Source: Oligoflexales bacterium
GTDB taxonomy: Bacteria > Bdellovibrionota_B > Oligoflexia > Oligoflexales > JAPPIL01
DNA: 64,000 nucleotides
NCBI GenBank assembly: GCA_965215515.1
Contig: OZ244057.1
Span: 928,001-992,000 of the forward strand
Reading direction: 5' to 3'
In this document: positions 21,396 through 62,910 of the stretch, in pieces
How the letters are laid out: the number at the start of each line of letters is the position of its first letter
Position numbering within the stretch: position 1 is the first letter of the stretch
Made by a program: the position numbers and the translations under genes
The notes under the pieces: model-generated
What the model was told of the DNA's origin: nothing
Databases searched by the model: none
The model's input: only the letters and a program-made list of their open reading frames with translations

Positions 21396-21584
21396 CTGTA
21401 GTGTCGGTATGTCGAAGCTAGCCAGATTCATGCAACAATGCTCGGTTACTCAGATAAGCATCTATAATGAAATAACTTTTACCCGTGTACCGCGTTCACT
21501 GAGCTACACAACTCACTGGCCTTTCCGCGCTCGAACCCCTAACATCGATCTCAACGTTAACTTTGATTGTGGAGGACATTTGCC

Positions 21585-22790
21585 ATGAGAAAAACGATTT
21601 GGGGAGTGCTAGCATCGGTCGCACTGCTCGCTTGCGCGGAGCGATACCCCGCACAAGTGCGAGGTATCGACGACATCGATACCATCAGAGTCAGGTGTGT
21701 GACAGGCACCTCGGAGGAAGTCACCCTGCCCGATCTACAGGCGGGGCGAGTCTGTACCGCACGCACGTTCATGAACTTCTGCCGCGCCCGTTTCCGTGCC
21801 GAAACGAGCGAGGAGCAGAAGGAGCACATCCGTCACACGGTGGCCGTCCTACGCCAACACGTCGGCGGCGACACCTGCAAGGAAAGCTTCGAGAGGCTGC
21901 GCAAGCTGACCTTCATCGCTTTGCAAGAGCGAGACATCGTCGATGTTTCTCCCTTCATGGGGTTGAGTAGCTTGCGGCATCTCGATCTATCGGGTAACGC
22001 GATCACCGACATCACACCGCTGCAAAGCTTGCCGCAGCTCGTGGTGTTGGCGGTCAACGCTAACCGTCTGACGAAACTGCCCGTCCTCGACATGCGGAAA
22101 CTGCGTCGTCTCTACCTGAGCCACAACTCTATCACCGACCTCCAAGGGTTGCGCGGCATGCCCAATCTGCGGCGGCTGACACTCGACAACACCACCCACG
22201 ACGTTGCCGATTACGAGGGGATCGCGAGCCTCGAAGGACTACAACATCTGAAACGACTCGACCACCTCGAAGTGGCGGGAGTACAGCTGCGCAGTGCCGC
22301 ACAGGTCGAGGAACTAACCCTGCTGCGCACCCTCAACCTGCGCCACAACAACTTGGCACAGATGCCATCGCTCGCAGTCGGCAAGTACCTGAAGGAAGTA
22401 GACTTCAGCCACAACCAGCTGACGGCGATCGATTTCATCACCACCAACCGCACCTTGCAGAAAATCAACTTCAGCCACAACCAAATCGAACAGCTGACCG
22501 CCCTGCACAACAAACCCCACCTGCAGCAAGCATTGTTCAGCACCAACCGCATCACCGACATCTCGCCGTTGCGTGCCCTGTACGATCTGGAAACGGTTGA
22601 CTTCCGCGGCAATGCGGTAAGCGATCTCACCCCCCTACAACGCCTGCATCAGTTATCGTTCACGGGGGTCGAATTCGCCGACAACCCCGTCGTTGCTGAC
22701 CACAGCACGGCCACCTGTCCCGTCGAAGCTGTGTCCAGTGCACTGCGGGACTACTGCCGTCGCCTCGTGCACAGCACACGAGACAACTGA
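21585..22790 (+). CDS. Leucine-rich repeat lipoprotein (internalin-like)
   Basis: Lipobox LLAC; repeated LxxLxLxxNxIxD units; GGAGG RBS. Confidence 0.9.
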   Translation: MRKTIWGVLASVALLACAERYPAQVRGIDDIDTIRVRCVTGTSEEVTLPDLQAGRVCTARTFMNFCRARFRAETSEEQKEHIRHTVAVLRQHVGGDTCKESFERLRKLTFIALQERDIVDVSPFMGLSSLRHLDLSGNAITDITPLQSLPQLVVLAVNANRLTKLPVLDMRKLRRLYLSHNSITDLQGLRGMPNLRRLTLDNTTHDVADYEGIASLEGLQHLKRLDHLEVAGVQLRSAAQVEELTLLRTLNLRHNNLAQMPSLAVGKYLKEVDFSHNQLTAIDFITTNRTLQKINFSHNQIEQLTALHNKPHLQQALFSTNRITDISPLRALYDLETVDFRGNAVSDLTPLQRLHQLSFTGVEFADNPVVADHSTATCPVEAVSSALRDYCRRLVHSTRDN

Positions 22791-28686: not shown

Positions 28687-28711
28687 CCTCCATGAACTTT
28701 TGGGGAAGAGG

Positions 28712-31700
28712 ATGAAAAATGATGCTAAGCGATTGCTCTCCCTGTGGATGCTAGCACTCTGCCTCGCCTGCGGGGGAGATGATCTGGAGTCAGGCTCTAA
28801 GTTCATCAGCAAGACACAGCGAGATCGTGATGGGCATCCTAGCGGCAGCGATATCCACAGGTGTTATTATCGCGGCAACACAGTGGTCTGTGGCTTGCAT
28901 GGCAACGCCTATCTGATCAACAAAGTGCATGAAAAAGACCACCCCAACAGTTCTTCCGACGCACGCGACCCGCCTTACCTCGATATGACGGTCGAGGTGC
29001 AGGTCGGGTGGTGGGCGACTAAGCATGAAGATTGCGATAACCCTTGTATGACCGATGACAAAGTCACGGCGGGAGAATCTCCTGATCCTACCACATGCAC
29101 AAGCACTGACGAGGGGGCCGATCCCGCCAGCCCCGACGACGATACTGTAACTGAACATGACTGCACATGGCATTCCTGTCTGGGGGGAGTGAATGCCACC
29201 GAGGTGGTCAACGCGGCCATCGACAAGTGGCTCGCCCCACTGCGAACACCGTACAGCAGCACCGAGAACCCGATCATCAGTGGCGGTTATATCGACAACA
29301 CTGACCCCAAGGATGTGGCAGATCTGACAGTCAATTTTGCCTGCTCGCACTCTTCTCTTGCTTCAAAGATCCCCTGCCCGATCAGCTGCACGCGCTACCG
29401 AAATGCCTCCGGCGGCTACACCACTATCCCTAGCAGCGACGGTAGTTGCGACAAGGATAGCAGCGGAGCCTGCGCGCACAATCAGCCTGTCATCCAGCTC
29501 GGCGATGGCCGTTTACCCAAAGAGAATCACCGCGATACCTTGGGTGAGCACGACAAACTCAATTTGCTCCATGAGATCGGGCATGCCTTCGGCCTCGCCG
29601 ACACCCACGACGGAGGAGTAAGGATCGGCAAACAGCCGCGGGCGATCATGGCATGGGAGCGGATCGGGGAGCGGGGCAATAACGATTTGTTGCTCGGTAA
29701 AGACGACAAGGCAGGGGTGCAGTGGTTGTACGAGCACCATCGGCGCGGGCAACGCGAGCGTGACTGTCATTTCGACGAGTATGAGTACAACAGTAACACG
29801 GGACAGGAGGGTTGCGAGCCGCGCTATGTGTTGATCGTCACCCTGAAAAACCGCAACCACGGAGAGGCGGTGGTGATCATCGATACTGACCCTAACCTCG
29901 ACATCAACGAAGTCGAGGAGGAAACGGGCAACTCAGCCTTGCACTACGCCATCATCGAGCATGCTAATCCTATCAACACGGATGCGGATACGGCGGGCTA
30001 CCTGCTGGTCATTCAGGAATTGCTGGACTATGCAGGCATTAACCTTAACCTCAAGGATAAGACGACGGGCCGGACTCCTCTGCATCTGGCGGTACAGTTC
30101 AACCAGCAACGTATCGTCATTCTTCTTCTCGCCGCCGCGGGCATCTTGGTACAAACAGCAGATGACAAGCAGCAGACAGCCTTGCATTACGCCGCGAGCT
30201 TGGGTCACACGCATCTAATCAGTGCGATGCTGGCGAGTTTTGGCAGCCACGTAGAGGCACAGGACAGCGACGGCAAGACGGCGTTGCATCTGGCGGCAGC
30301 AAACGGACATGCCGACACCGTGAGTTTTTTCAGTGCCTACACGGGTGGCGGGATTGCTGCGCTAGCGGGGACGGAGGATAACGATGGCAACACGGCGTTA
30401 CATCTGGCGGCGGAAAATGGGCGCACGGATGTGGTGGCAGTGATTTTGCGCGCCGACCGCGGCAGGACGTTCTTAAACAGCACTAACGACCGTGATGAAA
30501 CCCCGCTGCATCTGGCGGCAAAGTTCGGTCGTGACGATGTGGTGGCGAGTTTGTTGCGACAGACAGATGTCGATATCAATCGGCAAGATGTCCAAGGCAA
30601 CACGCCTTTGCACCTCGCCGCACTGCATAACCGCCCTGCCGTCGTGCGTTTACTGCTCAACAAGAGCGGGATCGACACCACGATCAGCAACGGCAACGAC
30701 AAGACAGCACGTGACGAAGCGGTCAGTCACCGCCATACCGATGTTATCGACGTTTTCGATGGTGGCGATACCCTCTATGGCACGAGTTCTGCGGAACGGC
30801 TCATCCAGGCCTTGAAGGTAGGTAACATCGACCCAGACGAGTACTGCACCGCAGGCGATAGCGATTGCCGCCAGAAGTCGGCCTTAACGATTATGCGTAC
30901 CGATCAAAACCTCGATGTCAATTACACCGAGCCTAGCACAGGCAACACGGCACTGCACTACGCAGTACAGGGGGACGACCCTGTCGGCGCGGCCCGCGGC
31001 CCGTACGAGACGGTCGTCGATCTCCTCGTGCGCCGCACTTTGCTCAACCCCAACCTCAAGAACACCAACGGCGCGACCCCACTACATCTTGCCGTGCGGC
31101 ATGCAAAACTGGAAACGGTAAGGCTGTTGCTGGGCAATCGCCGCCTCGACGCTAATCTTACCAACAATGTCGGCGAAACTGCCCTACACATCGCTGTCGA
31201 TCTTGCCCATGAAAACATTCTCGCGGAGTTGCTGCGTTACCGTAGCGGCACAGTCGATGTCAATCTACAGGACGACACGGGACGTACACCGTTGCATATC
31301 GCTGCCGAGCAGCGCAATCCTGAGGTTGTTCAGATGTTGGTCGATGACCGCCGTGTCGATGTTAACCTCCGTACCCGCACCCACGACGAGACTGCCTTGC
31401 ACATTGCGGCTGAGTTCGACAACGACGAGGTTGTCGAGGTATTGCTGCGCGATGCTGACATCGATGTCAATCTACAGGATGCGACAGGTTCGACGGCCTT
31501 GCATAGCGCGGCTCATCACGGCAGTACGGCGGTGGTGACGCTGCTACTCGACGTGCCTAATATCGACCTGACTATTCTCGATAACCAGCAGCTCAGTGCT
31601 TATGGGCGCGCCGAAGCCAGCGGTTCGAATGATGTGGTGGAAATTTTTGACAACCTGGACAGGGGCGACGATGTTGTTTTCCGCGGCACGCTGATGGAGG

Positions 31701-33832
31701 AGTTGCGTGACAAGGGTAGCGGCGAAGATGTGGAAGATGTGGCTCTCGACATTCTCAATGACGACGAAGACGATCTCGACGTTAATGAAAGAGACCGTCG
31801 CAGTGGCAAGACTCCGCTGCATTATGCGGTCGAGTACGAGTATGCTCGTTTGCTTGCCGCTCTGTTGGCGCATCCTGACCTCCAGATTAATTTAAAAGAC
31901 GGGGAGGGCGAGACTGCTTTGCATCACGCGGTGCGTTTACAGCAGGCCAGCACGGTTACCGATTTGTTGCGGCATCGTGCTATCGAGGTCAATGCCACTG
32001 ATAGAGATGGCGATACTGCTCTGTTGCTCGCGGTGCGGGAGCAGGAACAGGCGATAGTTACCTTGCTAGCGCGGCATCGTGACATCGATGCGAACCGCAA
32101 AGACAGGGCGGGTGATACACCTCTGCTGCTGGCGGTGAAAAGCAAGAACGCTAATCTCGTGGGTATTTTGTTGCGTACTGCAGGCGTGGAGGTCAATTTG
32201 AAGGACGGTGATGGTGACGCTCCTCTGCACATCGCGATACGGGGCAGCGACACTCCTGTGGTGACACAGCTCGCCGCCGTCGCGGCCATCGAGGCCAACC
32301 ACAAAAACGCTGACGGCGACACGGCGCTGCACATTGCAGCTCGCAACAAAAAGAGCGGTCTGGTGCGCACCCTGCTGAGCATTGCGGGTATCGATGTCGA
32401 TGTGAAGGATCGCGGCAACAAGACTGCCCTTCATCTGGCGGTGGCTAAGCGCGATGCGGCTACGGTCACTCATCTGCTCGAGCATAGCAGTATTGACGTT
32501 AACGCGGTGGTAACGGGGGTTGAGGGTCGCACGGCGCTGCATCTCGCCATCGCGCAGCACATTGCGACCGACGAAGATTATAGTCGGGTCATCGATCTGT
32601 TGTTGGGGCATCTCGACATCGACGTTAACGTCAAGAACAGCCATCAGGAGAGTTTGCTGCTGCTGACGGTCAAGGAGGAGGAGACCGCGCTAATTACCAA
32701 ACTGTTGGCGCATGCGAACATCGAGGTTAACAGCAGCAACAGTCGGCAGAAAACTTCTTTGATGTTCGCGGCCGAGCGCGGCTCGCTTAACATTGTGCAT
32801 CAGTTGTTGGCGCATCGCGACATCGATGTCAATGTGCAGGACAACAAGCGTTTCACTGCTTTGCATTTTGCCGCGCATCACGGGCAGGTTGCTGTCGTGC
32901 GTGCGTTGCTGGCACATGCTGGTATCGACACTGCACTCAGAGACAGATGGAATTTAACTCCTCGCAAACGAGCGAAGGCTAGGGGACATACTGGGGTGGT
33001 GGCGGTGTTCGACGAGTATGAGGCAGGTAATGTCGGCAGTGCGGTAACTTTGTTGGCTGAGTTGGCGCGGGGCGATAGCGAGGAGAGTGTGCTGACTATT
33101 ATCGCGGCTAAGCGGGGCAACGTTGCCGTCAATGCTGTGGATGATAGCAATGCTTACACGGCACTGCACTATGCGGCGCGACGCGGTTATCTACGGGTAG
33201 TGAACGCTCTGTTGGATTACGACGCTATCGAGGTCAACGCAGCCAGTGCAGGGCTGGAGCGCCCCTTACATCTTGCCGCACGTGGGGGTCATGAGCGTGT
33301 TGTGCGTGCATTACTGGCGCACGGGAGGATTCAGATCAATGTCCGTGACAGTCGGGGGGTTACACCCTTGCATCGTGCGGTCGTCGGCGAGAATAATGCC
33401 CTGGTGCAGGCGTTGTTGGGGCATACGGGCATTCGTCCTACGCTCGCTACTAACAACGGCTACACGGCACTGCATTGGGCGGCGCAGCTCGGTTATGACG
33501 GTGTTGTGCGTCTCTTGCTCAACAAGCAGCCTCGGCTCATCAACATCAAGACGGTGCGGGGGCGCACGGCACTTTATTATGCCGCCTGGTTTGGGCACAC
33601 GTCCACTGTGCAGCAGCTGCTCAGGGAAACGGCTGTCAACGTGAATGCGCGCGACGAGGATGGCGATACTGCTTTGCATAAGGTCGCGGCGTACGATCGT
33701 CTTGCCGTCGCTCGTTTGTTGCTCGAGGCGGGAGCGAGCACGCAGATTAGCAATAAGAAGCGTGAGAGGGCGCGTGATATCGCGGAGGAGAGGGGATACG
33801 TGGAGATAGTGGCACTTATCGATAGTTATTGA
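28712..33832 (+). CDS. Large lipoprotein: metzincin-type metalloprotease domain plus about 34 ankyrin repeats
   Basis: Lipobox CLAC; HEIGHAFGLAD zinc motif with downstream AIM Met-turn; repeated G-x-T-[AP]-L-H-x-A units. Confidence 0.92.
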   Translation: MKNDAKRLLSLWMLALCLACGGDDLESGSKFISKTQRDRDGHPSGSDIHRCYYRGNTVVCGLHGNAYLINKVHEKDHPNSSSDARDPPYLDMTVEVQVGWWATKHEDCDNPCMTDDKVTAGESPDPTTCTSTDEGADPASPDDDTVTEHDCTWHSCLGGVNATEVVNAAIDKWLAPLRTPYSSTENPIISGGYIDNTDPKDVADLTVNFACSHSSLASKIPCPISCTRYRNASGGYTTIPSSDGSCDKDSSGACAHNQPVIQLGDGRLPKENHRDTLGEHDKLNLLHEIGHAFGLADTHDGGVRIGKQPRAIMAWERIGERGNNDLLLGKDDKAGVQWLYEHHRRGQRERDCHFDEYEYNSNTGQEGCEPRYVLIVTLKNRNHGEAVVIIDTDPNLDINEVEEETGNSALHYAIIEHANPINTDADTAGYLLVIQELLDYAGINLNLKDKTTGRTPLHLAVQFNQQRIVILLLAAAGILVQTADDKQQTALHYAASLGHTHLISAMLASFGSHVEAQDSDGKTALHLAAANGHADTVSFFSAYTGGGIAALAGTEDNDGNTALHLAAENGRTDVVAVILRADRGRTFLNSTNDRDETPLHLAAKFGRDDVVASLLRQTDVDINRQDVQGNTPLHLAALHNRPAVVRLLLNKSGIDTTISNGNDKTARDEAVSHRHTDVIDVFDGGDTLYGTSSAERLIQALKVGNIDPDEYCTAGDSDCRQKSALTIMRTDQNLDVNYTEPSTGNTALHYAVQGDDPVGAARGPYETVVDLLVRRTLLNPNLKNTNGATPLHLAVRHAKLETVRLLLGNRRLDANLTNNVGETALHIAVDLAHENILAELLRYRSGTVDVNLQDDTGRTPLHIAAEQRNPEVVQMLVDDRRVDVNLRTRTHDETALHIAAEFDNDEVVEVLLRDADIDVNLQDATGSTALHSAAHHGSTAVVTLLLDVPNIDLTILDNQQLSAYGRAEASGSNDVVEIFDNLDRGDDVVFRGTLMEELRDKGSGEDVEDVALDILNDDEDDLDVNERDRRSGKTPLHYAVEYEYARLLAALLAHPDLQINLKDGEGETALHHAVRLQQASTVTDLLRHRAIEVNATDRDGDTALLLAVREQEQAIVTLLARHRDIDANRKDRAGDTPLLLAVKSKNANLVGILLRTAGVEVNLKDGDGDAPLHIAIRGSDTPVVTQLAAVAAIEANHKNADGDTALHIAARNKKSGLVRTLLSIAGIDVDVKDRGNKTALHLAVAKRDAATVTHLLEHSSIDVNAVVTGVEGRTALHLAIAQHIATDEDYSRVIDLLLGHLDIDVNVKNSHQESLLLLTVKEEETALITKLLAHANIEVNSSNSRQKTSLMFAAERGSLNIVHQLLAHRDIDVNVQDNKRFTALHFAAHHGQVAVVRALLAHAGIDTALRDRWNLTPRKRAKARGHTGVVAVFDEYEAGNVGSAVTLLAELARGDSEESVLTIIAAKRGNVAVNAVDDSNAYTALHYAARRGYLRVVNALLDYDAIEVNAASAGLERPLHLAARGGHERVVRALLAHGRIQINVRDSRGVTPLHRAVVGENNALVQALLGHTGIRPTLATNNGYTALHWAAQLGYDGVVRLLLNKQPRLINIKTVRGRTALYYAAWFGHTSTVQQLLRETAVNVNARDEDGDTALHKVAAYDRLAVARLLLEAGASTQISNKKRERARDIAEERGYVEIVALIDSY

Positions 33833-34565: not shown

Positions 34566-35210
34566 TCATTCGTTGTAACGTTCTGCGAAGGCGGCGACTC
34601 GCAGGACGTTGTGTAGTTTGACATCGGGGCGGCGGTAGTAGTGGGGAAATCCCTCGTAGCTGATGAAGCGCACTCCGACATCGTCGCCGTGGCTGCCGAC
34701 GACTAGGCCATGGAAGTTGTTGTGGCGAAAGTGGCGGTCGATGAGAATGACCACATGTCCGTGCCATTTATTTCCGTCGTAGGTGCCGTAGACGAGCATG
34801 TCGCCTATTTTGGCTCGGTCGATAGTGATGTTGTAGTAGCCGTTGTTTTTTTTCACTTTGCGCATGATGCTGGTCGGTTGGTATTTCTTGTAGTAGGCAC
34901 CCAGGTCTTGAAAAATTTTCATGGTGAAGTTGGAGCAGTCCACTCCTCGCAACCAGTTACGTCCCCCCCAGCGGTAGGGTGTTCCTTGTCTGATCATGGC
35001 GAGATAGAGCAGGGTATTGTGGTGGATGTTGTTCGATCTGTAGCGGTCGAAGAGGTTGTCATCCATTGTAACGATCAGTTGGGTGTGCTCTTCGTGTTCC
35101 AGTGTGTTTGTTGCGGCTAAAAAATCGTCTATCCCTCTTTCGCCGTGTCCTCGAGCACTGACACCTGTTGTCAGCAGTGCGCACCCGAGCGCGGCTGCGT
35201 ATCGCCACAT
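34566..35210 (-). CDS. NlpC/P60 family cysteine peptidase
   Basis: Signal peptide; GTPYRWGG, GVDCSNF, GDMLVY, GHVVI. Confidence 0.9.
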   Translation of the reverse strand: MWRYAAALGCALLTTGVSARGHGERGIDDFLAATNTLEHEEHTQLIVTMDDNLFDRYRSNNIHHNTLLYLAMIRQGTPYRWGGRNWLRGVDCSNFTMKIFQDLGAYYKKYQPTSIMRKVKKNNGYYNITIDRAKIGDMLVYGTYDGNKWHGHVVILIDRHFRHNNFHGLVVGSHGDDVGVRFISYEGFPHYYRRPDVKLHNVLRVAAFAERYNE

Positions 35211-35401
35211 GGTAAGGGTTCTTCCCCGTAAAGCGGTTACCTAACGCCTATACTAACCGCGTGGGACTGACGGGTCAACTAGCATGGATGATTGTGGCGC
35301 AAGTCAAGACACAGCCCTGGCACAATTGCCCGCCCTCTTCCGCGGCAAGGTAGCGCTCGACCACATTTTTAGGAAATTATATCAAATACTTGCAGAAAAT
35401 G

Positions 35402-35430
35402 TTGACTATAAGCACGAAAAGCGACATAAT
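35402..35430 (+). promoter_or_regulatory. Sigma-70 promoter, near-leaderless
   Basis: TTGACT-N17-CATAAT ending 9 nt before ATG 35440; no SD visible. Confidence 0.55.
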
Positions 35431-35439
35431 TTACCTGTC

Positions 35440-36609
35440 ATGATCAATAGAACAGTCAAGCCTTCTAAATTCCAGAGTTTTTTCTTGTTCGGGGCACGTG
35501 GAACGGGTAAATCTACCTTGCTACGGCGGTTACTGTCAGTACGTGAGCATTTCTGGGTTGGCTTGCTGGAAGCAGAGACAGAGGCACGTTATCTCAACGC
35601 ACCGCAGTTGTTATTGCAAGATTGGCAGAAAGCCAGTGCCAAACAACGGCAGAACAACTGGGTAGTTATCGACGAAGTGCAGAAGGCACCGCGTCTCCTT
35701 GATGTGGTACATCTTGCCATAGAGAGGCATGGCATCAATTTCGCCATGACTGGCTCCAGTGCGCGCAAATTGCGGCGTGGTGCGGCTAATTTACTGGCGG
35801 GGCGGGCCGTCACCTTTGCCCTATATCCCTTTAGTGCGCGAGAGCTTGGTTTGCAGTTTGATCTCGATGATGCCCTTAATTTTGGGATGTTACCACGTGC
35901 TGTGGCTTTGCGCGACGAAAGTACCGAACGCAAGCGTTTTCTACATAGCTACGTCAATACCTATTTGCGTGAGGAGGTGCAAGCCGAAGGCTTCCTGCGT
36001 AAGTTTGCTCCCTTTCGTAGTTTTTTACAAATTGCTGCCAGTGCTAGTGCCACAGTCCTGAACATATCTTTGCTGGCGCGCCAAACTGGTGTCGATAAGA
36101 GTACCGTGCAAAGATATTTCAGTATTCTGGAAGACACCTTGATCGGTTTTTACTTGCCTGCTTTTAGTCGTAGCACTCGCATGGCTTATACCAAGCATCC
36201 CAAGTTTTATTTTTTTGATACAGGTGTTGCACGAGCCGCGTCATTGTCTCTCGATACCTATCTACGCCCAGCTACCTATGAATTCGGACGCTTTTTTGAA
36301 CATTTTGTCGTGTTGGAAATTATCAAAGAAAACTCTGCACACGAAAAGGGCTACGAGTTTTTTTGCTTCCGCACCGATAGGGGGGCAGAGATCGATATCA
36401 TTGCCAATAAAGGCAGGCAGACACTGGCGATCGAAATCAAATCCACTCCCACACCAGACATCACTGCCATCCGTAAACTCGCCCGCTTAAGCAAGAGCAT
36501 TGCCAACTGCCAGCCATGTATTTTTTGTCGCACCACAACACCTTCCCTAGTTGAAGGTGTGCACGTTATGCCTTGGCAGCAGGGGATTGCGGAATTTTTC
36601 AGCTGCTGA
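35440..36609 (+). CDS. AAA_14 ATPase with DUF4143 domain
   Basis: GARGTGKS, IDEVQK, TGSSARKL, LLAGRA, KFYFFDTG, EID..., IEIK. Confidence 0.92.
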   Translation: MINRTVKPSKFQSFFLFGARGTGKSTLLRRLLSVREHFWVGLLEAETEARYLNAPQLLLQDWQKASAKQRQNNWVVIDEVQKAPRLLDVVHLAIERHGINFAMTGSSARKLRRGAANLLAGRAVTFALYPFSARELGLQFDLDDALNFGMLPRAVALRDESTERKRFLHSYVNTYLREEVQAEGFLRKFAPFRSFLQIAASASATVLNISLLARQTGVDKSTVQRYFSILEDTLIGFYLPAFSRSTRMAYTKHPKFYFFDTGVARAASLSLDTYLRPATYEFGRFFEHFVVLEIIKENSAHEKGYEFFCFRTDRGAEIDIIANKGRQTLAIEIKSTPTPDITAIRKLARLSKSIANCQPCIFCRTTTPSLVEGVHVMPWQQGIAEFFSC

Positions 36610-36641
36610 ACTGCCGATAGAGAGAAAGCAGGGGGTATAGT

Positions 36642-36794
36642 TCACTCTTCTTTTTTCAGTTCACCCCAGGTGGTAGTTTGTTTGTCTTTTGCCACGACAG
36701 GCATAGCTTTGGGATGGGCGGCGATGAGTGCGGCGATGCGTGCCAGACCGAGCTGGCGGGCGAGGTCTAGTGCGCTGTGCCCGTCTATACCGCA
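36642..36794 (-). pseudogene. 3' fragment of an ankyrin-repeat gene carrying the C-terminal TTTWGELK motif
   Basis: Manual translation CGIDGHSALDLARQLGLARIAALIAAHPKAMPVVAKDKQTTTWGELKKEE*; in-frame stop immediately upstream, no start. Confidence 0.7.
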
Positions 36795-36815
36795 TCACCC
36801 TGCGTATAGCCACAC

Positions 36816-36947
36816 TCACTGTTCCCCCCGCCGTGCCTGTGCCAAGAAAGCATGATAACGCGGCAGCGCCAAGGCTCCCAAAATGCCGATAATCGCCACC
36901 GCGACCATCAACTCCACCAAACTTAAACCCGCCTTCGTCCGCACCAC
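36816..36947 (-). pseudogene. Truncated type IV pilin (N-terminal helix only)
   Basis: Manual translation (V)VRTKAG|LSLVELMVAVAIIGILGALALPRYHAFLAQARRGEQ*: class III signal with E5, stops after 43 aa. Confidence 0.8.
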
Positions 36948-37116
36948 TTCCCTTTTTTTGGCTAAAAACAAAACTCCCCCAGGCGAACTCCATCGGCGTT
37001 TTTTTTCGCTTTAGTTATGTTGCAAAAACCCTAAAATTACAATTGTCTGTCTGCAATATTGAGGGAGAGAGGGGGGAAGAAGAAATGGGGCAGCTACACA
37101 TTGATCGTGCGCCAAA

Positions 37117-38811
37117 TCAGCCAGATATTGTCTTTCTTGCAATATATTTATTGTGAATGTGTTCTATATGGTATGGGGCGTTCTTTGCGATCGGTTCGTT
37201 AAGATCTACCGTTACGTCGTAGAATTCTGCCGATGCCTGGTGTCCCGCATCACGATATATCGCCGCTAACGTCTTCCTGGTTTTTTCGTCAGTGCTGTCG
37301 AGAAAGAATGCCAAGCGCAGTTTTTTAAAAGCTTCTGTTTCGTTGCTCGCCAGTAACTTTTGTGCCTCTCTTCGTAATTTCGTTGCTTCTTTACTAAAGT
37401 CAAAGAGACTCTCTCCATCATAGAGCTTCTCGCTACTGCTAAGCAGTGCAGTCCTTTGAGTAGAGTCAAGCTCGTGAAAGCCTGCGTCACGCAACCTTGC
37501 GGCAACCCGCAGCATTTTGTAGTGATTGAGCACCCCCGCGCCATCGACCTGGCTGGTACTGTGGATGCTCGTGCGGGTAGCAGTTTTTTGCAGCATGATA
37601 ACCGCTTCATCCCGACTCAGATCTGGAAGGATACTCATGGTGTCGGCAAGCGCACCAGTGACCATCGGGGTTGCTCCACTCGTACCACCGAAGCGAGTAA
37701 GCGTACCTCCTATCTCAGACACTTGGAAAGTATCAGCAGGTGCAAGCACGATTACTTTTTCCGATACTTGCGAAAATTCGCTAGGAAAACCCCCAGGATC
37801 AGCACTGCCTACCGTGATAATTTCGTCTCCGAGATTAGCAATTATCTTATCATCACCAGAGAGTGGAAAGTCATTGCCGACACCCTTAATGAAAATAGTT
37901 TTACGAAGACCGACCTCTTCCTTTGCTTTAGCAATATCTTCCAACCCCACTCCAAGTCCCCCCAGCGATACGTTGACGAGATCGGGTTCTACTGCGAGGC
38001 TATTTTCCGAAAATGTTGTTTCCTCCCGTAATGAAAAAATATCAGATCCTCGGTTATCAGCTCGCACATGAGTTACTTTTCCCCTGGAAGACACTCCCAC
38101 AGGAGCTTCCCCCAATATAATACCAAGTACCTTCGCAGCATGATTGTCATTGCCATTATTTCGAAAATAGTTATCCATTATGTCCGACCAGTTACTATCG
38201 ACAGACAGATCGTCGTGCATTCTTGAACGCATTGTTTCACTCATCACACTAGGAGGCGTAAAGCCTCCGTCTATGATGGCTATATTAGAATCAACCAAGT
38301 CAAGTTTCTTTCCTATCTTCTCCATCAGCATTCTTGCCTCAGGTGTTCCAGTTGCTTCTTGTGCCCAAAAAACGTTAAGCCGCGAAGAAAACTTCGGTAA
38401 TCCCAAGTTATGCGGAGGACGCAGTCCTAGTCTGGCGATACTTCGCTCATAAGTGTATCTATCTTCATACTCAATTATGCCGTAGTCCTTGCTGTACAGG
38501 TTCAGTATTTTTTCACGGTCAAGACTTTGTACTACACCTTCACCTTTTCCTACAGTTTTTCCAGCCTTCCCTAGTGCCTCTTTTTCTCGTGCCGCTTTTT
38601 CTAGTGCTTCTTCCAGTGCCTTGTTTTTGGCGGCTTTACGTTTACCGATAACCACCGCCGTCACCGCTACCACAACCGTTGCGACAATCAGCGCGACGGA
38701 CTTCCAGCGGGCGCGCTGATCTTCCTCCGCTTCACTGTCCGCAGCAAAACCTGGAGTAACCGATAACGACACCGTGAGAATAACTGCAATTAGCCTCTTA
38801 CAAAGCACCAT
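37117..38811 (-). CDS. S8 subtilase-family serine peptidase with signal+TM leader
   Basis: IIDGGF (Asp), NHAAKVLGII (His), GND (oxyanion Asn), GGTSGATP (Ser); AAGGAGG RBS; AT-richer than flanks. Confidence 0.88.
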   Translation of the reverse strand: MVLCKRLIAVILTVSLSVTPGFAADSEAEEDQRARWKSVALIVATVVVAVTAVVIGKRKAAKNKALEEALEKAAREKEALGKAGKTVGKGEGVVQSLDREKILNLYSKDYGIIEYEDRYTYERSIARLGLRPPHNLGLPKFSSRLNVFWAQEATGTPEARMLMEKIGKKLDLVDSNIAIIDGGFTPPSVMSETMRSRMHDDLSVDSNWSDIMDNYFRNNGNDNHAAKVLGIILGEAPVGVSSRGKVTHVRADNRGSDIFSLREETTFSENSLAVEPDLVNVSLGGLGVGLEDIAKAKEEVGLRKTIFIKGVGNDFPLSGDDKIIANLGDEIITVGSADPGGFPSEFSQVSEKVIVLAPADTFQVSEIGGTLTRFGGTSGATPMVTGALADTMSILPDLSRDEAVIMLQKTATRTSIHSTSQVDGAGVLNHYKMLRVAARLRDAGFHELDSTQRTALLSSSEKLYDGESLFDFSKEATKLRREAQKLLASNETEAFKKLRLAFFLDSTDEKTRKTLAAIYRDAGHQASAEFYDVTVDLNEPIAKNAPYHIEHIHNKYIARKTISG

Positions 38812-38856
38812 AGAAAGCCTCCTTACTCGTCTTACCAAGGGCGACTACCAAGGGTG

Positions 38857-38886
38857 ATTGTAACATACAATTATTATTAATTTCAA
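38857..38886 (-). promoter_or_regulatory. Sigma-70 promoter of the subtilase gene
   Basis: TTGAAA-N18-TACAAT with an extended TG; homologous to the promoter at 41348-41376. Confidence 0.55.
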
Positions 38887-39074
38887 CCTGTTTACGTTAT
38901 TTTATATAGTACTCGTAATAATTTTACCCCTAACCATGAGTAGGGGCACAACAGCGGTGTCGTAGCAAAGACTTAACAATTGCCATCACATCTATGCACA
39001 GCAGCGAAAAGCCGTCTGGTGGGGAGTATGCCAGCTAGCATAGCCGCTGATCCCGTTTCAACACAACCACCCGT

Positions 39075-39233
39075 CTACCCCCTCTTATCCTTCAGACCAC
39101 GCTTGAGCAGTTGCAGTTCTTTCTTGGATAGTCCAGTGATGCGGATGATTTTCGCTTCAGGCTCATCTTCCTCGAGCATCTTCATCGCGATGTCGCGTCG
39201 CTCCTCGCCCTTCCCCTCGGCTTTGCCCTCGCC
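39075..39233 (-). pseudogene. C-terminal remnant of an Rpn/YhgA-like (PD-(D/E)XK putative transposase) gene
   Basis: EGKAEGKGEERRDIAMKML...KIIRITGLSKKEL is the typical Rpn C-terminal tail. Confidence 0.7.
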
Positions 39234-39494
39234 GTGCGTCCGCACTTGCCACTCCCCCTCACATCGTCGCTGAGCCACAGGCGGACATCGCCTCTGGCAA
39301 CGAGTGCCTTGTTATACTTGCCCCAATTCCTGACCTGGTACGCGGTACCGTTTCTCACCGCCGAACTCCACGTGATGGGTTTTTGATTTTTTCATCGTAT
39401 CATGAATGCTGCGGCCGTGCCTTATTCTCGTCTGATTTCTTTTGCCAAACTGACTCGTAGTGCCTGAATATACACCGACTTAGGCAACAATGCC
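39234..39494 (-). mobile_element. Left-end remnant of an IS5-family (IS903 group) element
   Basis: Terminal IR GGCATTGTTGCCTAAGTC (39494-39477) resembles IS903 GGCTTTGTTGAATAAATC. Frameshifted transposase start from 39395: MKKSK...KRY / QVRNWGKYNKALVARGDVRLWL. Confidence 0.8.
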
Positions 39495-39517
39495 ACGGGA
39501 CTCAGGAACAACGTTGT

Positions 39518-41314
39518 TTAGGGGTGAAGCTGCTTTGCTGCGTCTACGTAACTGCGAATATATAGGTGCAGTCCTTCTACCATATTAGTAGCTAGCTGCG
39601 GGTCGAAAAGTGGGTGAAAGATCGCTTCGAGTTGTGCCGTTGTGATGCTGTCTAAACGAGCAATAAAATCAGCATCGGTGTAAAATGCTTTACTATTTTC
39701 ACGCAACTCCTCAAAGTGCCGACCATACAGGCCTTGGTCGACACGGGGATAATCAAAAGCTTGTTCTGAGTCAATACTTATAAGTCTTCCGGCAATAGGA
39801 TTAATCTTATTATCGTAGTAACCAGATCGGTCGCGGTCCCCTGTCAATAAAAAGAAAGTCCTGTTTCTGGTCGTAATGTGGTGGGTTTCAGAGGAGATGT
39901 CTTTGCCAATCAGTTCGAGATAACTCTTGTATTGTTTGTGGAAGTCGTCACCCATACCGTTGATGAACAACTGCACTGCTCCTTTGTAATTACCTATCTT
40001 TAGTGGCACCGTGATAGGGAAAACATGCAGGCCCAGCAACTGGTCTAATCTGTATGCTGCAATTTCCCGTTGTGGCCAAGCAACAAGACGTTCTTCTGGT
40101 GAGTGAGTACTTTTATATACTCCCTTCAAACCACTGCTGAATTCAAGCAACAGAGGTTTAGTAAATCCTCCAGGCAAGGTATCTTTGCTAATTATTTTAT
40201 CGTTCATCAGCACATCTTCTATTATTTTTTTCATCGCCGTAGCTTCAGAGGTGAACCCACGCTCAGCTAATTTCCAGATAACTTCCTGTAGATTACCGAG
40301 TTTTACCAAAGCAGTTAACTCGCTGTTGATCGTTGTGCTGTTAATGATTGTAGATATTTTCTCAGCCAGCTCAGGAGCATATTTCACTTCAGGCAGACCG
40401 TCAGTTAAATTCTTGGTGACATCGTATATGTTGTGCCAATATTCAAGAGAGTGCTTATGCTCATCCTCAAGTTTATGTATAGCTGAGTACTTTGGATATT
40501 TTTTGTCAAAATCAGTGTTGATTTTACGAATATGATCTTCGCGAATTTGCCACTCACTATGATGATACAGTCCCTTTATCTTATCAATTTGTGCGTCTCG
40601 CTGTGTGATTGCCGTTGCTATTTCTTCAGATGAGTGGGAGTCAGGATATTGCTGGTGGATTGCTGCTAATTTTTTGGCTTTTTCAATTTCTAAAGCCGCT
40701 ACCCTTCCCTCGTAGATACCACGTAAATCTGCGACACTCATTTTTTTGCCATCTTGCGCTTCTAGTTGTAAAGCCTTACCGTGTTCAATAGTTGAGGTAT
40801 GTTTTCTGACCAGCGCCGCGGTGTACTCTTTGGCTTCGCGTATTTTTTCAGCCTTACGTGCCGCTTCCTCCAGCGCAAGTGCTTCTTTTTTACGTGCCGC
40901 TTCCTCCAGCGCAAGTGCTTCCTTTTCTTCAGCTATGCGTATTTTTTCAGCCTTACGTGCCGCTTCCTCCAGCGCAAGTGCTTCTTTTTTACGTGCCGCT
41001 TCCTCCAGCGCAAGTGCTTCCTTTTCTTCAGCTATGCGTATTTTTTCAGCCCTACGTGCCGCTTTTTCTAGTGCTTCTTTTTCTCGTGCCGCTTTTTCTA
41101 GTGCTTCTTTCAGTAACTTACTCTTAGCGGCTTTACGTTTACCGATAACCACCGCCGTCACCGCTACCACAACCGTTGCGACAATCAGTGCAACGGACTT
41201 CAAGGGGGCGCGTGGATCTTCCTCTGCTTCACTGTCCGCAGCAAAACCTGGAGTAACCGATAACGACACCGTAAGGACAAATACAATTAGCTTGGTCATG
41301 ATCTGCCTTCCCAT
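39518..41314 (-). CDS. Protein with signal+TM leader, coiled-coil repeats and C-terminal PI3/PI4-kinase-like atypical kinase domain
   Basis: GVYK, REIAAYRLDQLLGL, GAVQLF, DRDR...N and ISIDSEQAF kinase-like motifs. Confidence 0.75.
   Translation of the reverse strand: MGRQIMTKLIVFVLTVSLSVTPGFAADSEAEEDPRAPLKSVALIVATVVVAVTAVVIGKRKAAKSKLLKEALEKAAREKEALEKAARRAEKIRIAEEKEALALEEAARKKEALALEEAARKAEKIRIAEEKEALALEEAARKKEALALEEAARKAEKIREAKEYTAALVRKHTSTIEHGKALQLEAQDGKKMSVADLRGIYEGRVAALEIEKAKKLAAIHQQYPDSHSSEEIATAITQRDAQIDKIKGLYHHSEWQIREDHIRKINTDFDKKYPKYSAIHKLEDEHKHSLEYWHNIYDVTKNLTDGLPEVKYAPELAEKISTIINSTTINSELTALVKLGNLQEVIWKLAERGFTSEATAMKKIIEDVLMNDKIISKDTLPGGFTKPLLLEFSSGLKGVYKSTHSPEERLVAWPQREIAAYRLDQLLGLHVFPITVPLKIGNYKGAVQLFINGMGDDFHKQYKSYLELIGKDISSETHHITTRNRTFFLLTGDRDRSGYYDNKINPIAGRLISIDSEQAFDYPRVDQGLYGRHFEELRENSKAFYTDADFIARLDSITTAQLEAIFHPLFDPQLATNMVEGLHLYIRSYVDAAKQLHP
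40838..41062. repeat. Tandem 99-bp coding repeat (2 identical copies plus a partial one, with 36-bp subrepeats)
   Basis: Units start at 40838, 40937 and 41036; each encodes IAEEKEALALEEAARKKEALALEEAARKAEKIR. Confidence 0.92.
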
Positions 41315-41347
41315 TTTAATTTCAGGGAAAATAACAACCTAGGAGAG

Positions 41348-41376
41348 ATTGTACTTCATAGAACGATTAATAGCAA
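41348..41376 (-). promoter_or_regulatory. Sigma-70 promoter of the kinase-like gene
   Basis: TTGCTA-N17-TACAAT in AT-rich DNA. Confidence 0.5.
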
Positions 41377-41492
41377 CCTATTTATATTGTTTTATATGGT
41401 ATTTTAATAATTAATTACGAATATAAACATAGTGCCCGTTTAAAGCCGCACCCCCAAACAACTGTCAGTCATGAAATATTGTGTGCGGGCCG

Positions 41493-42221
41493 CTAGCCCT
41501 TGCTCGTCACGGGTTGGAGATGCAGTGTGCTCGCCCCGATCCGAATCCGATCGCGGCTTGTAACCCTGCGCAAGCCGCTGATTTTTTTGTCGTTGACGAA
41601 AGTGCCGGTGCGAGAATTGTGGTCTTTAATAAAGACTTCGCCGCGGCTGTTAATTCTGATCAAGAGATGACGGCTGGAGATGGCAGGGTCACGGTTAAAG
41701 TTGCCGATGACGCTGTCGCGGCCGAGCCAGGTTTCTTCACGATCGAGACTCAGCACCTCGCTGCTGAGGTCGGGGTAAGTGGCTTTGATCTTCAGGACAT
41801 AGGTACGGCGGTTTTCTCCCAACATGGTCTCCAGCATGGTGCGTTGCCCTGAGCTGCGCCGTACCCGATACTTGTCAAACAGCGGTATCGACGAAGCTTT
41901 ATGGGCTGCAACGAGTTGGAAACAGAACTTCGTCTTGCCAAGACGAATGATGTCCTGCGCGGCGAGAGGTGCTTTGACGACCTTGTCGTCGTTGAGATAC
42001 GTGCCGTTGGTGGAGTTCATGTCGAAGATAAAATACGTCCCGTCGATGTCTTGGATCTGACAATGGCTGGCTGAAACCTCCGAGTCATCGACGATAATAT
42101 CTGCCTTCTCGCGCCCGATGATGGTCGAGGGATGTTTAAGCTTGACGGTAAACGACGGAGTGCCTCGCCGCGGGAAAAACTCAATGACACCACGCATAGG
42201 ATCCGATTTAGGTTGACTCAT
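41493..42221 (-). CDS. Double FHA-domain protein
   Basis: IGR...VSASH...DMNSTNGT and LGR...ISSRH...DHNSRTGT. Confidence 0.92.
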   Translation of the reverse strand: MSQPKSDPMRGVIEFFPRRGTPSFTVKLKHPSTIIGREKADIIVDDSEVSASHCQIQDIDGTYFIFDMNSTNGTYLNDDKVVKAPLAAQDIIRLGKTKFCFQLVAAHKASSIPLFDKYRVRRSSGQRTMLETMLGENRRTYVLKIKATYPDLSSEVLSLDREETWLGRDSVIGNFNRDPAISSRHLLIRINSRGEVFIKDHNSRTGTFVNDKKISGLRRVTSRDRIRIGASTLHLQPVTSKG

Positions 42222-42273: not shown

Positions 42274-42552
42274 ATGATGCAAAGGGAGGACACCGTAGAC
42301 GCGACAAAGGTGGAGTTTTCGCAGCTGGTGCTGAGTCTCTGCTCCCTCGCCCTGCGTAGTCTGGGTGAGGTATCCGACAGCAACGAAGGTAGGGTCGATC
42401 TGCCCACCGCGTGCTATAACATCGCTATCCTCACCATGCTGAGGGACAAGACACGCGGCAACCTCAGCGACGAAGAACAGCAACAACTCGACGAGCTGCT
42501 CTCCGACCTGCAGCTGAAATACGCGGCAGCCGCTGATTCCGATGGGGCATAG
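42274..42552 (+). CDS. DUF1844 family protein
   Basis: FSQLVLSL...LG...VDLPTA..NIAILTMLRDKTRGNLSDEE..LL..LL.DLQLKY. Confidence 0.85.
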   Translation: MMQREDTVDATKVEFSQLVLSLCSLALRSLGEVSDSNEGRVDLPTACYNIAILTMLRDKTRGNLSDEEQQQLDELLSDLQLKYAAAADSDGA

Positions 42553-42621
42553 CTGAGCGGTAAGGGATGGGGATAAGGATCGCGATTTGTTTTTTGTCGC
42601 ACACATGTAGTGTTCGTCCGA

Positions 42622-42693
42622 TGGGGCATAGCCAAGCGGTAAGGCACCGGGTTTTGATCCCGACATGCGCAGGTTCGAATCCTGCTGCCCCAG
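42622..42693 (+). tRNA. tRNA-Gln (UUG)
   Basis: Acceptor stem TGGGGCA/TGCCCCA, D-arm GCCAAGCGGTAAGGC, anticodon loop TTTTGAT, T-arm GGTTCGAATCC; CCA not encoded. Confidence 0.95.
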
Positions 42694-61652: not shown

Positions 61653-62798
61653 TCAAAACAATCGCCCGCGCCACAGCTCGAGTAGAAAAGTTTGCCAATG
61701 CACAAGGTGAAATACGCCGTGTTTGCGGTTCATGCGATCTTGACTAACCAGGTAGAATTTTTGGAATACGCCCTCCTCGGACAATGCCCGCAAACCCTTG
61801 AGATCCCTTGTGGAGGTGTTGGTGGCAGCTTTGACTTCGATCGCAAGTTCCTTCCCAACAAGAAAGTCAACCTCATGCCCATAGCGAGAACGCCAGAAAT
61901 GCAGCTCTGTCATGTGCTTGCGTGTGTAAGACAGATAGGCACGCAATTCCATCAAGATAAACAGCTCGAAACTTTTCCCATAGAGAGTTGTCATGCGTTC
62001 GGTGTGTTCTATGCCAGCCAGCACACGTGCCACACCTGGATCGAAAAGATAAAATTTTGCGGTCGCGGTGGCCTTCCTGCTGCGTGATGCTCGCCAGGGC
62101 GGCAGTGTTATCCCCAATAAGGTATCCTCCAAAACCTGCACATACTCTCTGACGGTAGATGCCGCGACCTGACAGTCACGGCTGAGCCCGTTGTAGTTAA
62201 TCAACTCGCAGTTTGCTAGCGCCATCGTGCGCAAGAAGCGGGTGAAGGGCGGCAGCTGCCGCACAATGCCCTCCTCACGAATTTCTTCTTTCAGGTAAAC
62301 GGAAATGTAGGCGTTGAGTTCTTCATCTGGATCTTTCCCTGCATAGACGGCTGGCAAACCACCGTAGTGAAGATAACGATCTAAATCGAAGACATCTATC
62401 TCGGCAGACGTGAGAGGAAGAAGCTGTGCTAACCACGCACGACCCGCCAACAGGTTAGTCCCGCCACGCCGTAACTTACGCATGCTGCTGCCAGTGAGCA
62501 AAAAACGCACCCCACCCCTCTCGATCAAACGATGCACACTGTTAAGCAACTGAGGTAGGCGCTGAATCTCATCGATGGCTACAATCCCCTGCTTCGCACG
62601 TACCACCGTCGCCTCTAGACGCTCAGGCTCGGCAGCAAATTCAAGCAAAACCCTCTCATCGAGCAAATCGATAAGAATCGCCTGATCACGCAGCTGTTGC
62701 GCAATGAGGGTAGACTTGCCTACCGCCCGCGGGCCGAAGAGAAAGAACGATTTCTTCGCCAACAACCGCGGCAGGCTGAGGTAACGTGCAATCATCAT
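61653..62798 (-). CDS. AAA_14 ATPase with DUF4143 domain
   Basis: GPRAVGKS, IDEIQR, TGSS, LLAGRA, KFYLFDPG, EVDF, IEVK. Confidence 0.92.
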   Translation of the reverse strand: MMIARYLSLPRLLAKKSFFLFGPRAVGKSTLIAQQLRDQAILIDLLDERVLLEFAAEPERLEATVVRAKQGIVAIDEIQRLPQLLNSVHRLIERGGVRFLLTGSSMRKLRRGGTNLLAGRAWLAQLLPLTSAEIDVFDLDRYLHYGGLPAVYAGKDPDEELNAYISVYLKEEIREEGIVRQLPPFTRFLRTMALANCELINYNGLSRDCQVAASTVREYVQVLEDTLLGITLPPWRASRSRKATATAKFYLFDPGVARVLAGIEHTERMTTLYGKSFELFILMELRAYLSYTRKHMTELHFWRSRYGHEVDFLVGKELAIEVKAATNTSTRDLKGLRALSEEGVFQKFYLVSQDRMNRKHGVFHLVHWQTFLLELWRGRLF

Positions 62799-62910
62799 AC
62801 TATGCCTATTCTTACCCAATTTTGCCGCGAAATAAACACCCCTATCGTTAATTTTACCGAAAAAATAGCGATAGAGTTGTGCGTTTGCAGGGTGAGGGGT
62901 AGATTCCCCT

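Follow-up and report, generated by a model that had tools for sequence, protein, structure and literature searches.

How do two neighbouring genes for unrelated enzymes come to begin with nearly the same membrane-targeting leader, and where would that leader place the enzymes? The question is raised by a 64,000-nt stretch of the genome of Oligoflexales bacterium (GCA_965215515.1, contig OZ244057.1, positions 928,001 to 992,000; hereafter the window), in which a gene for an S8 subtilase (P0019) and a gene for a protein with a kinase-like domain (P0001) lie 0.7 kb apart, both on the minus strand. The initial annotation read the pair as a conserved targeting cassette recombined onto varied cargo, in the manner of polymorphic toxins or effector families. 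Our data suggest instead that the pair arose by local mixing of genes and is not part of a widespread system for toxin delivery.

The shared element is an ungapped direct repeat of 231 nt (D1; Table 1) that is 90% identical between its copies by repeat finder and 91.07% identical over 224 nt by blastn (E 2e-86); it encloses the near-identical stretch of about 200 bp (38580-38775 and 41075-41272) recorded in the initial annotation, which is real. Compared codon by codon, the block spans kinase-gene codons 3-4 to ~80, and the two leaders share 84% protein identity. All 19 transmembrane codons are nucleotide-identical between the copies, changes in the hydrophobic core of the block are silent with none inside the helix, and amino-acid differences are confined to the earliest codons of the signal peptide, to the stub and to the coil. 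The C-terminal parts that follow are unrelated, one being a Peptidase_S8 domain (PF00082) and the other a kinase fold, and the presence of the same 5' module on two unrelated enzymes is thereby confirmed. Unitigs from three sequencing runs (X1-X3, three samples from a single study that may include the source) covering 37510-38608 and 38746-39321 span both edges of the S8 copy with 0 differences, reaching 44-48 nt into the block at a depth similar to that of the flanks, and the S8 body, leader and upstream region are tiled by unitigs of these runs, again with 0 differences and at even depth. Short perfect pieces of both genes, without the junctions, came from a fourth run in another study.

Table 1. 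Features of the subtilase-kinase locus, in window coordinates.
Feature	Position	Strand	Basis
S8 subtilase gene with apparently grafted leader, 564 aa (P0019)	37117..38811	minus	PF00082, subtilisin match, conserved residues
Shared block, S8 copy	38564..38794	minus	repeat finder, blastn, codon comparison, unitigs over both edges
S8-copy signal peptide	38743-38811	minus	
S8-copy acidic stub	38701-38742	minus	
S8-copy transmembrane helix	38644-38700	minus	predicted from hydrophobicity
S8-copy basic cluster and coil start	38563-38643	minus	
Promoter-like site, S8 gene	38857..38886	minus	sigma-70-like TTGAAA-18-TACAAT, TG before second hexamer
Kinase gene, 593 aa (P0001)	39518..41299	minus	open reading frame; full-length AlphaFold2 model
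Shared block, kinase copy	41061..41291	minus	repeat finder, blastn, codon comparison
Kinase-copy signal peptide	41240-41299	minus	
Kinase-copy acidic stub	41198-41239	minus	
Kinase-copy transmembrane helix	41141-41197	minus	predicted from hydrophobicity
Kinase-copy basic cluster and coil start	41060-41140	minus	
Long charged helix (stalk), residues 62-182	40754..41116	minus	single helix in AlphaFold2 model
99-nt tandem repeats inside stalk	40827-41024	minus	repeat families D2, D3
Kinase-like catalytic domain, residues 300-593	39521..40402	minus	AlphaFold2 domain model, fold matches, invariant residues
Promoter-like site, kinase gene	41348..41376	minus	sigma-70-like TTGCTA-17-TACAAT, AT-rich stretch upstream
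Rpn/YhgA-type recombination-promoting nuclease remnant, 67 aa, C-terminal end	39075..39278	minus	between the two genes; weak TIGR01784
Abutted ends of ~4.3-kb multi-copy gene pair, interior missing	36631..37075	minus	blastn; just downstream of S8 gene

At sequence level, the leader is confined to these two local copies. In the bacterium's own genome (2.18 Mb, one contig) blastn found two copies only, the next tblastn match having an E of 0.01, and in a database of 5.8 billion proteins residues 1-85 matched only P0001 and P0019. Across 41 genomes (its own and those of 40 relatives) weak leader matches occurred in four, and the seven matching places outside the own genome were mostly kinase-family genes (5/7: four N-termini and one truncated gene), the remainder being small proteins of 268 and 121 aa. 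The 268-aa protein (L009:1471-2274) and a 277-aa protein of the own genome (L041, G000:C1:273102-273935, minus strand; weak NERD nuclease-related match), which are unrelated, both carry a lipobox, acidic loop, second hydrophobic helix and basic flank, a lipoprotein version of the leader architecture.

Homology extends upstream of the block, as had been claimed: the two 130-nt upstream stretches align with a local score of 31.5 against a 99th percentile of 13.5-14 among 2338 open reading frame (ORF) 5' regions of the own genome, and each contains a sigma-70-like site, that of the S8 gene being the better match (10/12 positions). The 5' untranslated regions between promoter and start codon are dissimilar. 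The likely S8 start (ATG 38811) has AAGGAGG, a strong Shine-Dalgarno sequence, 6 nt upstream and the likely kinase start is ATG 41299, which render proteins of the same lengths as the database entries. The kinase upstream region also aligns with those of the S8 paralogues p2 and p3 (scores 20.0 and 17.5; ranks 3 and 5 of 2338).

The leader has the anatomy first described for it, namely a signal peptide, an acidic spacer, a second hydrophobic helix and KRKAAK. In the kinase, MTK is followed by 17-18 hydrophobic or small residues up to G-F-A, a 13-14-residue stub of net charge -3, a 19-residue helix and KRKAAKSK, the leader ending in the first turns of the long charged helix; the S8 leader has the same elements. 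G-F-A at -3 to -1 forms a predicted signal-peptidase site, with the cut between GFA and A, the loop of the two local copies is 13 residues with a net charge of -2 or -3, and the helix (mean Kyte-Doolittle 2.68) is followed by 5-6 K/R within 12 residues. This is the order of a procoat-like or type I anchor (signal peptide, short acidic loop, hydrophobic helix, basic C-flank). A Chlamydial Inc-like bilobed domain was not recognized, as the first segment lies at the extreme N-terminus with a signal-peptidase site and FHIPEP was not found. Judged by hydrophobicity, the -3/-1 rule and charge, the sequence rules agree in suggesting that the basic N-end lies inside, the acidic loop outside and the basic flank and charged stalk inside, and the earlier positive-inside argument for a cytoplasmic enzyme holds on these rules. 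The module would thus insert in the inner membrane as a helical hairpin, as M13 procoat does, and would then be cut by signal peptidase I after GFA. The product would be a type I protein in which a stub of ~14 acidic residues projects outward, a single helix crosses the membrane, and both KRKAAK and the enzyme lie on the cytoplasmic side. The kinase domain would be held on a predicted ~120-residue helix at the cytoplasmic face of the membrane, a sensible side for a kinase because ATP is inside.

The kinase domain is predicted to adopt the PI3/PI4-kinase/FAM20 fold, with PF00454 homology reached via intermediate sequences, which agrees with its first description as PI3/4-kinase-like. The full-length AlphaFold2 (AF2) model (mean predicted local distance difference test, pLDDT, 79.3) consists of the helix at 62-182, helices at 189-295 and the kinase at 300-593, and the domain model has a pLDDT of 80.9 and a predicted template modelling (TM) score of 0.83. 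Its best fold matches were PI4KII-alpha (Z 14.4, 216 residues aligned, root-mean-square deviation (rmsd) 4.5), FAM20C (Z 14.3, 225 residues, rmsd 3.7; Foldseek E 4e-6) and Helicobacter pylori CtkA (Z 12.7, 204 residues, rmsd 5.5), followed by Actin-fragmin kinase (11.2), CotH (9.6), HipA (9.6) and MavQ (9.1). G390, G393, K396, E412, D490, N497 and D510 are invariant in a 12-sequence alignment (A3) that includes distant members, with a catalytic loop spacing of D-x6-N; G390 and G393 belong to the Gly-rich loop, K396 would be the ATP-binding Lys, D490 and N497 the catalytic residues and D510 the metal-binding Asp. The protein itself matched no Pfam family at E <=0.01 and, in NCBIfam, only TIGR03843 weakly (E 0.0056); a PDB sequence search with the alignment profile gave chance-level matches only (best E 0.76). 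Searching 1.84 billion cluster representatives with a profile built from 12 family members recovered 4754 at E <=1e-3, and among 34 relatives hand-picked from 145 listed profile matches, PF00454 was found in 18 at E <=1e-3 (13 above the 27.1-bit cut-off) and PF06702 (FAM20/Golgi casein kinase) in three, below its cut-off. ESM Atlas returned unnamed bacterial clusters, one with PF00454 in 38% of its members, in agreement with the PF00454 matches of the relatives, while matches from a viral fold library, among them phage proteins with the name PI3K/PI4K-like, had low TM scores and added nothing beyond the PDB result.

The stub, helix and start of the coil or stalk are the native N-terminus of a branch of this kinase family, since eight homologues and 10 profile-found proteins share the two-segment leader, making 18 other members that carry it. 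Among 17 kinase-domain homologues, those eight have a signal peptide, acidic loop, helix, K/H-rich flank and very charged helix before the kinase, two have a shortened leader with a single hydrophobic segment, five start after the stalk as called (P0002, P0003, P0005, P0006 and P0011, which may be shortened gene calls) and two are longer with a plain signal peptide; among 138 M-starting representatives of the top profile matches, 10 have the two-segment leader and 100, by a crude rule, a hydrophobic segment at the start. The 20 leaders compared have a basic N-end, mostly A-x-A with Q after the cut, a loop of 12-24 residues (net negative in 13/20), a helix of 15-22 residues and then 2-6 K/R. 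The own genome holds two kinase copies. In a sister genome, four kinase-family genes stand in tandem (L012:3051-9736; also L008), and at least two of the copies (P0015 and P0016) have a leader with no acidic stub and only part of the helix, so that a single hydrophobic segment stands before KKK. The 99-nt (33-codon) tandem repeats, 96% identical and extending over 40827-41074, lie within the kinase stalk helix, so stalk length may vary.

The anchor is foreign to the S8 family. The subtilase itself matches PF00082 at E 2.1e-16 (residues 186-435 of its 573-aa ORF; score 60.5 bits, curated cut-off 21.8) and subtilisin BPN' at E 2e-8, with His and Ser aligned in the latter, and has D181, H224, N313 and S378 invariant in five family members, the catalytic Asp being probably that of the IID motif. 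The family is clade-specific, with a conserved helical C-terminal region of ~140 residues, and its other members have export signals. The own genome has five copies, the window gene and four further full paralogues, plus a fragment at 290592-290882, and three related genomes gave 24 S8 matches (9-13 per sister), all of which begin at query residue 96 or later, so that 0/24 reach residues 1-95. When the N-termini (first 140-150 residues) of ORFs in 20 loci, representing 19 distinct genes, were read, and two genes were set aside as unreadable (one internal stop, one masked stretch), 17/17 had one hydrophobic segment or a lipobox, soon followed by LPxLY..YG. The window protein retains this motif at about residue 101-110, which suggests that its ordinary export signal has been replaced by the ~85-residue leader. 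A cytoplasmic subtilase would have precedent, because intracellular subtilisins exist, and solved ones are among the sequence matches (7xr8, E 6.5e-8; 2x8j, E 3e-6).

The signal peptide at the front of the block is of the type used by the S8 paralogues of the own genome. Other kinases share a different one (MRY..K..ALLL.LTMSS.S.AQ), and in a Smith-Waterman comparison with 2339 ORF N-termini the best non-self matches of the block signal peptide were p2, p3 and a 1179-aa protein. The motif [IV]SL[SA]x?TP occurs near the N-terminus of only five long ORFs, these three and the two window genes. The 1179-aa protein (L039, G000:C1:2141715-2145335, minus strand), which has no Pfam family, has the S8-type signal peptide and perhaps the promoter layout too. 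The shared block thus joins an S8-type signal peptide to a stub, helix and coil of kinase type, and such a chimera calls for a minimum of two exchanges or a single complex one. Within the kinase gene, the coil part of the block runs on into the gene's own 99-nt tandem repeats, while in the S8 gene it stops abruptly. We therefore favour, with moderate confidence, a reading in which recombination between neighbours in a repeat-rich, low-GC patch made the module and an anchor was grafted on a normally exported subtilase. The 5' ends of both genes would have been homogenized by non-allelic gene conversion with one illegitimate junction, each exchange perhaps needing homology on one side only; the kinase would now use an S8-type signal peptide, and the subtilase, whose relatives have a plain signal peptide or lipobox, would have gained a membrane anchor. 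The direction and order of the exchanges are what we infer from these comparisons. As to timing, core proteins are 72-81% identical to those of a sister genome, the kinase domain 64-65% and the kinase leader 46%, against 84% (protein) and 91% (DNA) between the two local leaders, which implies that the exchange postdates the split from the sister species, or that repeated conversion keeps the copies alike.

The surroundings are those of a recombination-prone patch. GC content is 43-51% at 35001-42000 compared with ~55-60% on either side. Between the two genes, the remnant of a Rpn-type nuclease matches TIGR01784 weakly (E 0.0056, profile positions 232-271 of 273) and is 83.5% identical over 158 nt to a place in the genome that is matched by a Rpn-like protein; the genome has ~14 full-length Rpn-like genes, and genes of this type also adjoin kinase-family copies in a sister genome. 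Downstream of the S8 gene, two remnant ends (36631-36788 and 36823-37075), each with at least 12 copies in the genome at ~88-92% identity, abut one another, while elsewhere they lie ~4 kb apart. The full ~4.3-kb unit (~12 copies; L042, G000:C1:1947200-1951900) encodes a 906-aa protein with PF07963, the N-terminal pilin-type methylation motif, and a 457-aa ankyrin-repeat protein. The interval 39270-39500 is filled by short multi-copy repeats, and contig depth at 39315-39475 and 36900-37060 is 6-12 times that of the flanks, which fits short multi-copy repeats. Gene order around the locus is not conserved in sister genomes. A tRNA-bordered island was considered; the low-GC patch lies on the 5' side of a tRNA-Gln gene, gene order is unconserved, and island borders could not be set. 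The tRNA-Gln gene (42622-42693) has a partial 5' copy 80 nt upstream (35 nt, 86% identical; 42538-42572 vs 42617-42651), which may be the scar of an old insertion or duplication. Two AAA_14/DUF4143 ATPase genes lie in the window (35284-36609, plus strand; 61653-62972, minus strand), one of them bordering the low-GC patch.

Two candidate partnerships were rejected. A forkhead-associated (FHA) gene immediately upstream, at 41493-42221, was considered as a phospho-reader partner of the kinase, and no FHA gene was found near four kinase loci of relatives, the orthologues in two sister genomes lying ~1 Mb from the kinase genes. The S8 and kinase genes as a conserved pair were seen at 0/4 loci of the genus and near relatives, and a single locus in a distant metagenome-assembled genome (MAG) was judged too little. 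That locus (L014; MAG titled Pseudobdellovibrionaceae) was the only other place where S8 and kinase genes were seen side by side: an S8-like peptidase gene ends there (1-747), and 70 nt further on lies a gene (819-1754) for a 311-aa kinase-superfamily protein with a signal peptide.

Several points weigh against the recombination reading and the placement of both enzymes in the cytoplasm. The upstream likeness to the S8 paralogues is weak and is seen for the kinase copy only. The 9% divergence between the copies is uneven, one 60-nt stretch being fully identical, so that the number and order of events cannot be fixed, and the direction of transfer is drawn from three genomes of the genus and metagenome proteins. 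The topology comes from sequence rules, and AF2 gives the leader (residues 1-64 of the kinase) a pLDDT <50, with no confident structure. Cytoplasmic placement would moreover be a compartment change for both enzyme families, given that all S8 relatives read and 100/138 kinase-superfamily representatives start with one signal-peptide-like segment, and that the closest kinase folds include secretory-pathway or secreted kinases (FAM20C, CtkA). The scheme presumes that the leader is cleaved and that both proteins are made and active; the placement of the enzymes is the step that carries most of the uncertainty.

The strongest alternative concerns the subtilase, whose fusion might be a functionless by-product of recombination, mis-targeted and decaying, with the module used by the kinase only. 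The fusion does sit in a patch rich in remnants (the Rpn fragment and repeat-unit remnant, with the S8 fragment elsewhere in the genome), and its anchor is a single case among all S8 genes read. Yet the 564-codon frame is unbroken, the catalytic D, H, N and S are all retained, the gene has both the strong Shine-Dalgarno sequence and the better promoter match, and 9% divergence since the graft has left the helix unchanged and the hydrophobic core with silent changes; we consider inertness unlikely, though not markedly so.

Improbable, in our view, is that the charge rule misleads and the module anchors both enzymes with the catalytic domain outside the cytoplasm, in the periplasm or at the surface. 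Such placement would keep both families in the compartment of their relatives, as all S8 relatives and most kinase-superfamily members look exported, and FAM20C and CtkA, both among the best fold matches, act outside the producing cytoplasm. Against this, the N-terminal K/R, the acidic loop and the 5-6 K/R after the helix all fit an N-in, loop-out, C-in arrangement, the stalk that follows is extremely charged (very basic in homologues), the five leaderless homologues out of 17 would be cytoplasmic if their gene calls are real, and the periplasm contains no ATP for a kinase. A broader scheme is likewise improbable, namely that a transplantable anchor module (signal peptide, tiny acidic ectodomain, stop-transfer helix and stalk start) switches enzyme compartments in this host-associated lineage, having made anchored kinases from secreted ancestors and now having drawn a subtilase to the cytoplasmic face of the membrane, with Rpn nucleases driving the swaps and leader swapping serving as a regular rewiring of expanded host-interaction families.

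The cassette of the initial annotation, in which a dedicated targeting leader is recombined onto varied cargo and the enzymes are delivered to another cell, fares worse still. It has the single module on two unrelated enzymes in its favour, as well as the expansion of both families in the genus (five S8 and two kinase genes in the own genome; 9-13 S8 matches in sisters), a genome rich in ankyrin and leucine-rich-repeat (LRR) proteins, the similar lipobox, acidic loop and helix architecture of the 268-aa and 277-aa proteins, and an older layer that fits the idea weakly, the signal-peptide part, and perhaps the promoter, being common to five genes with three kinds of cargo. However, a spreading cassette is disfavoured because the leader sequence occurs only twice, both in the own genome and among 5.8 billion proteins, an outcome that the initial annotation had itself named as grounds for refutation, and 0/24 S8 matches in relatives carry it. 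The markers of type III, IV and VI secretion, one each (FHIPEP, VirB4 and TssC; PF00771, PF03135 and PF05943), gave no match in the own 93.9%-complete genome, where control families did give matches and only three secretins were found. No conserved small neighbour gene was seen around the four kinase loci, downstream or otherwise, nor at the window locus, no dedicated search for immunity genes having been made, and a very hydrophobic helix with KRKAAK, placed behind a Sec signal peptide, would be expected to halt transfer in the membrane of the bacterium itself. Delivery of the two anchored proteins to a host is thus not supported, and we regard the cassette as very unlikely. The window does encode a 1710-aa protein made almost entirely of ankyrin repeats (28700-33832, plus strand) and a 407-aa LRR protein (21567-22790, plus strand), eukaryote-like proteins typical of host-associated bacteria; Oligoflexales have been reported from cnidarians and sponges, and a host-associated lifestyle is plausible for this bacterium. 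Finally, although repeats of ~230 nt are able to mislead short-read assemblers and 41106-41242 in the kinase copy is almost uncovered by contigs of the runs (a gap from which we draw nothing), an assembly chimera or collapsed repeat is close to negligible as an explanation, because short-read unitigs from three runs bridge both S8 junctions at flank-like depth, the copies are distinguishable at ~20 differing sites and the genome is one 2.18-Mb contig.

With recombination between neighbours as the preferred reading, the locus offers a clear case from nature in which promoter and leader together were grafted between unrelated genes, and the graft should change where the enzyme works, not just its export, because a stop-transfer helix is included. 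It also brings to view a large bacterial branch of the PI3/PI4-kinase/FAM20 fold, mostly signal-peptide-bearing and only partly covered by Pfam, and within it a sub-branch whose members have a type I anchor and a helix predicted to span 120 residues. Should the topology prove true, the pair would be a useful test case for type I membrane proteins with large cytoplasmic domains, for compartment switching of a subtilase and for Rpn nucleases in the gene mosaicism of reduced, host-associated genomes. An inert S8 fusion would make the locus a recombination scar only.

Compared with known systems, the pair resembles polymorphic toxins (contact-dependent inhibition (CDI), Rhs, MafB) in having a constant N-terminal part joined by recombination to different C-terminal enzymes, but lacks a family of many variable tips, and its constant part is an anchor predicted to hold the enzyme inside; no sign of a type V, VI or VII delivery context was seen, with TssC giving no match, nor any immunity gene at the locus, within the limits of the search noted above. 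Like subtilisins, including intracellular ones, the window S8 protein has the S8 fold with Asp-His-Ser, but it comes from a clade-specific family with exported members and a ~140-residue helical C-terminal region. In common with PI4KII-alpha, FAM20C and CtkA, the kinase has a conserved Gly-rich loop and its Lys, a Glu, a catalytic D..N loop and an Asp for metal binding; identity is 12-17%, and its anchor, 120-residue helix and four-helix region have no counterpart there. M13 procoat inserts as a hairpin in a YidC-dependent manner and is cut by signal peptidase. The leader has the same elements in the same order (cleavable signal peptide, short acidic periplasmic loop, second hydrophobic helix, basic C-flank), but procoat is small with a tail of few residues, whereas here ~500 residues follow, and no relationship in sequence is implied.

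Closest in kind among known systems is the upstream-homology-box (UHB) family of Borrelia, also termed UHB/Erp, in which the shared leader is a lipoprotein signal peptide only, the many copies are carried by cp32 prophage plasmids and the genes encode surface lipoproteins. The leader described here, by contrast, has two copies on the chromosome, or five at the older signal-peptide level. The promoter and leader of the Borrelia burgdorferi UHB/Erp genes (OspE/OspF/Elp) are common to unrelated lipoproteins (PMC7002432). The two systems thus share unrelated mature proteins behind a near-identical promoter and leader, with recombination among paralogous loci in the Borrelia case. What is new relative to known leader sharing is that the graft here also carries a stop-transfer anchor: the module adds a stop-transfer helix and the start of a stalk, and with them the compartment would change, not the cargo alone.

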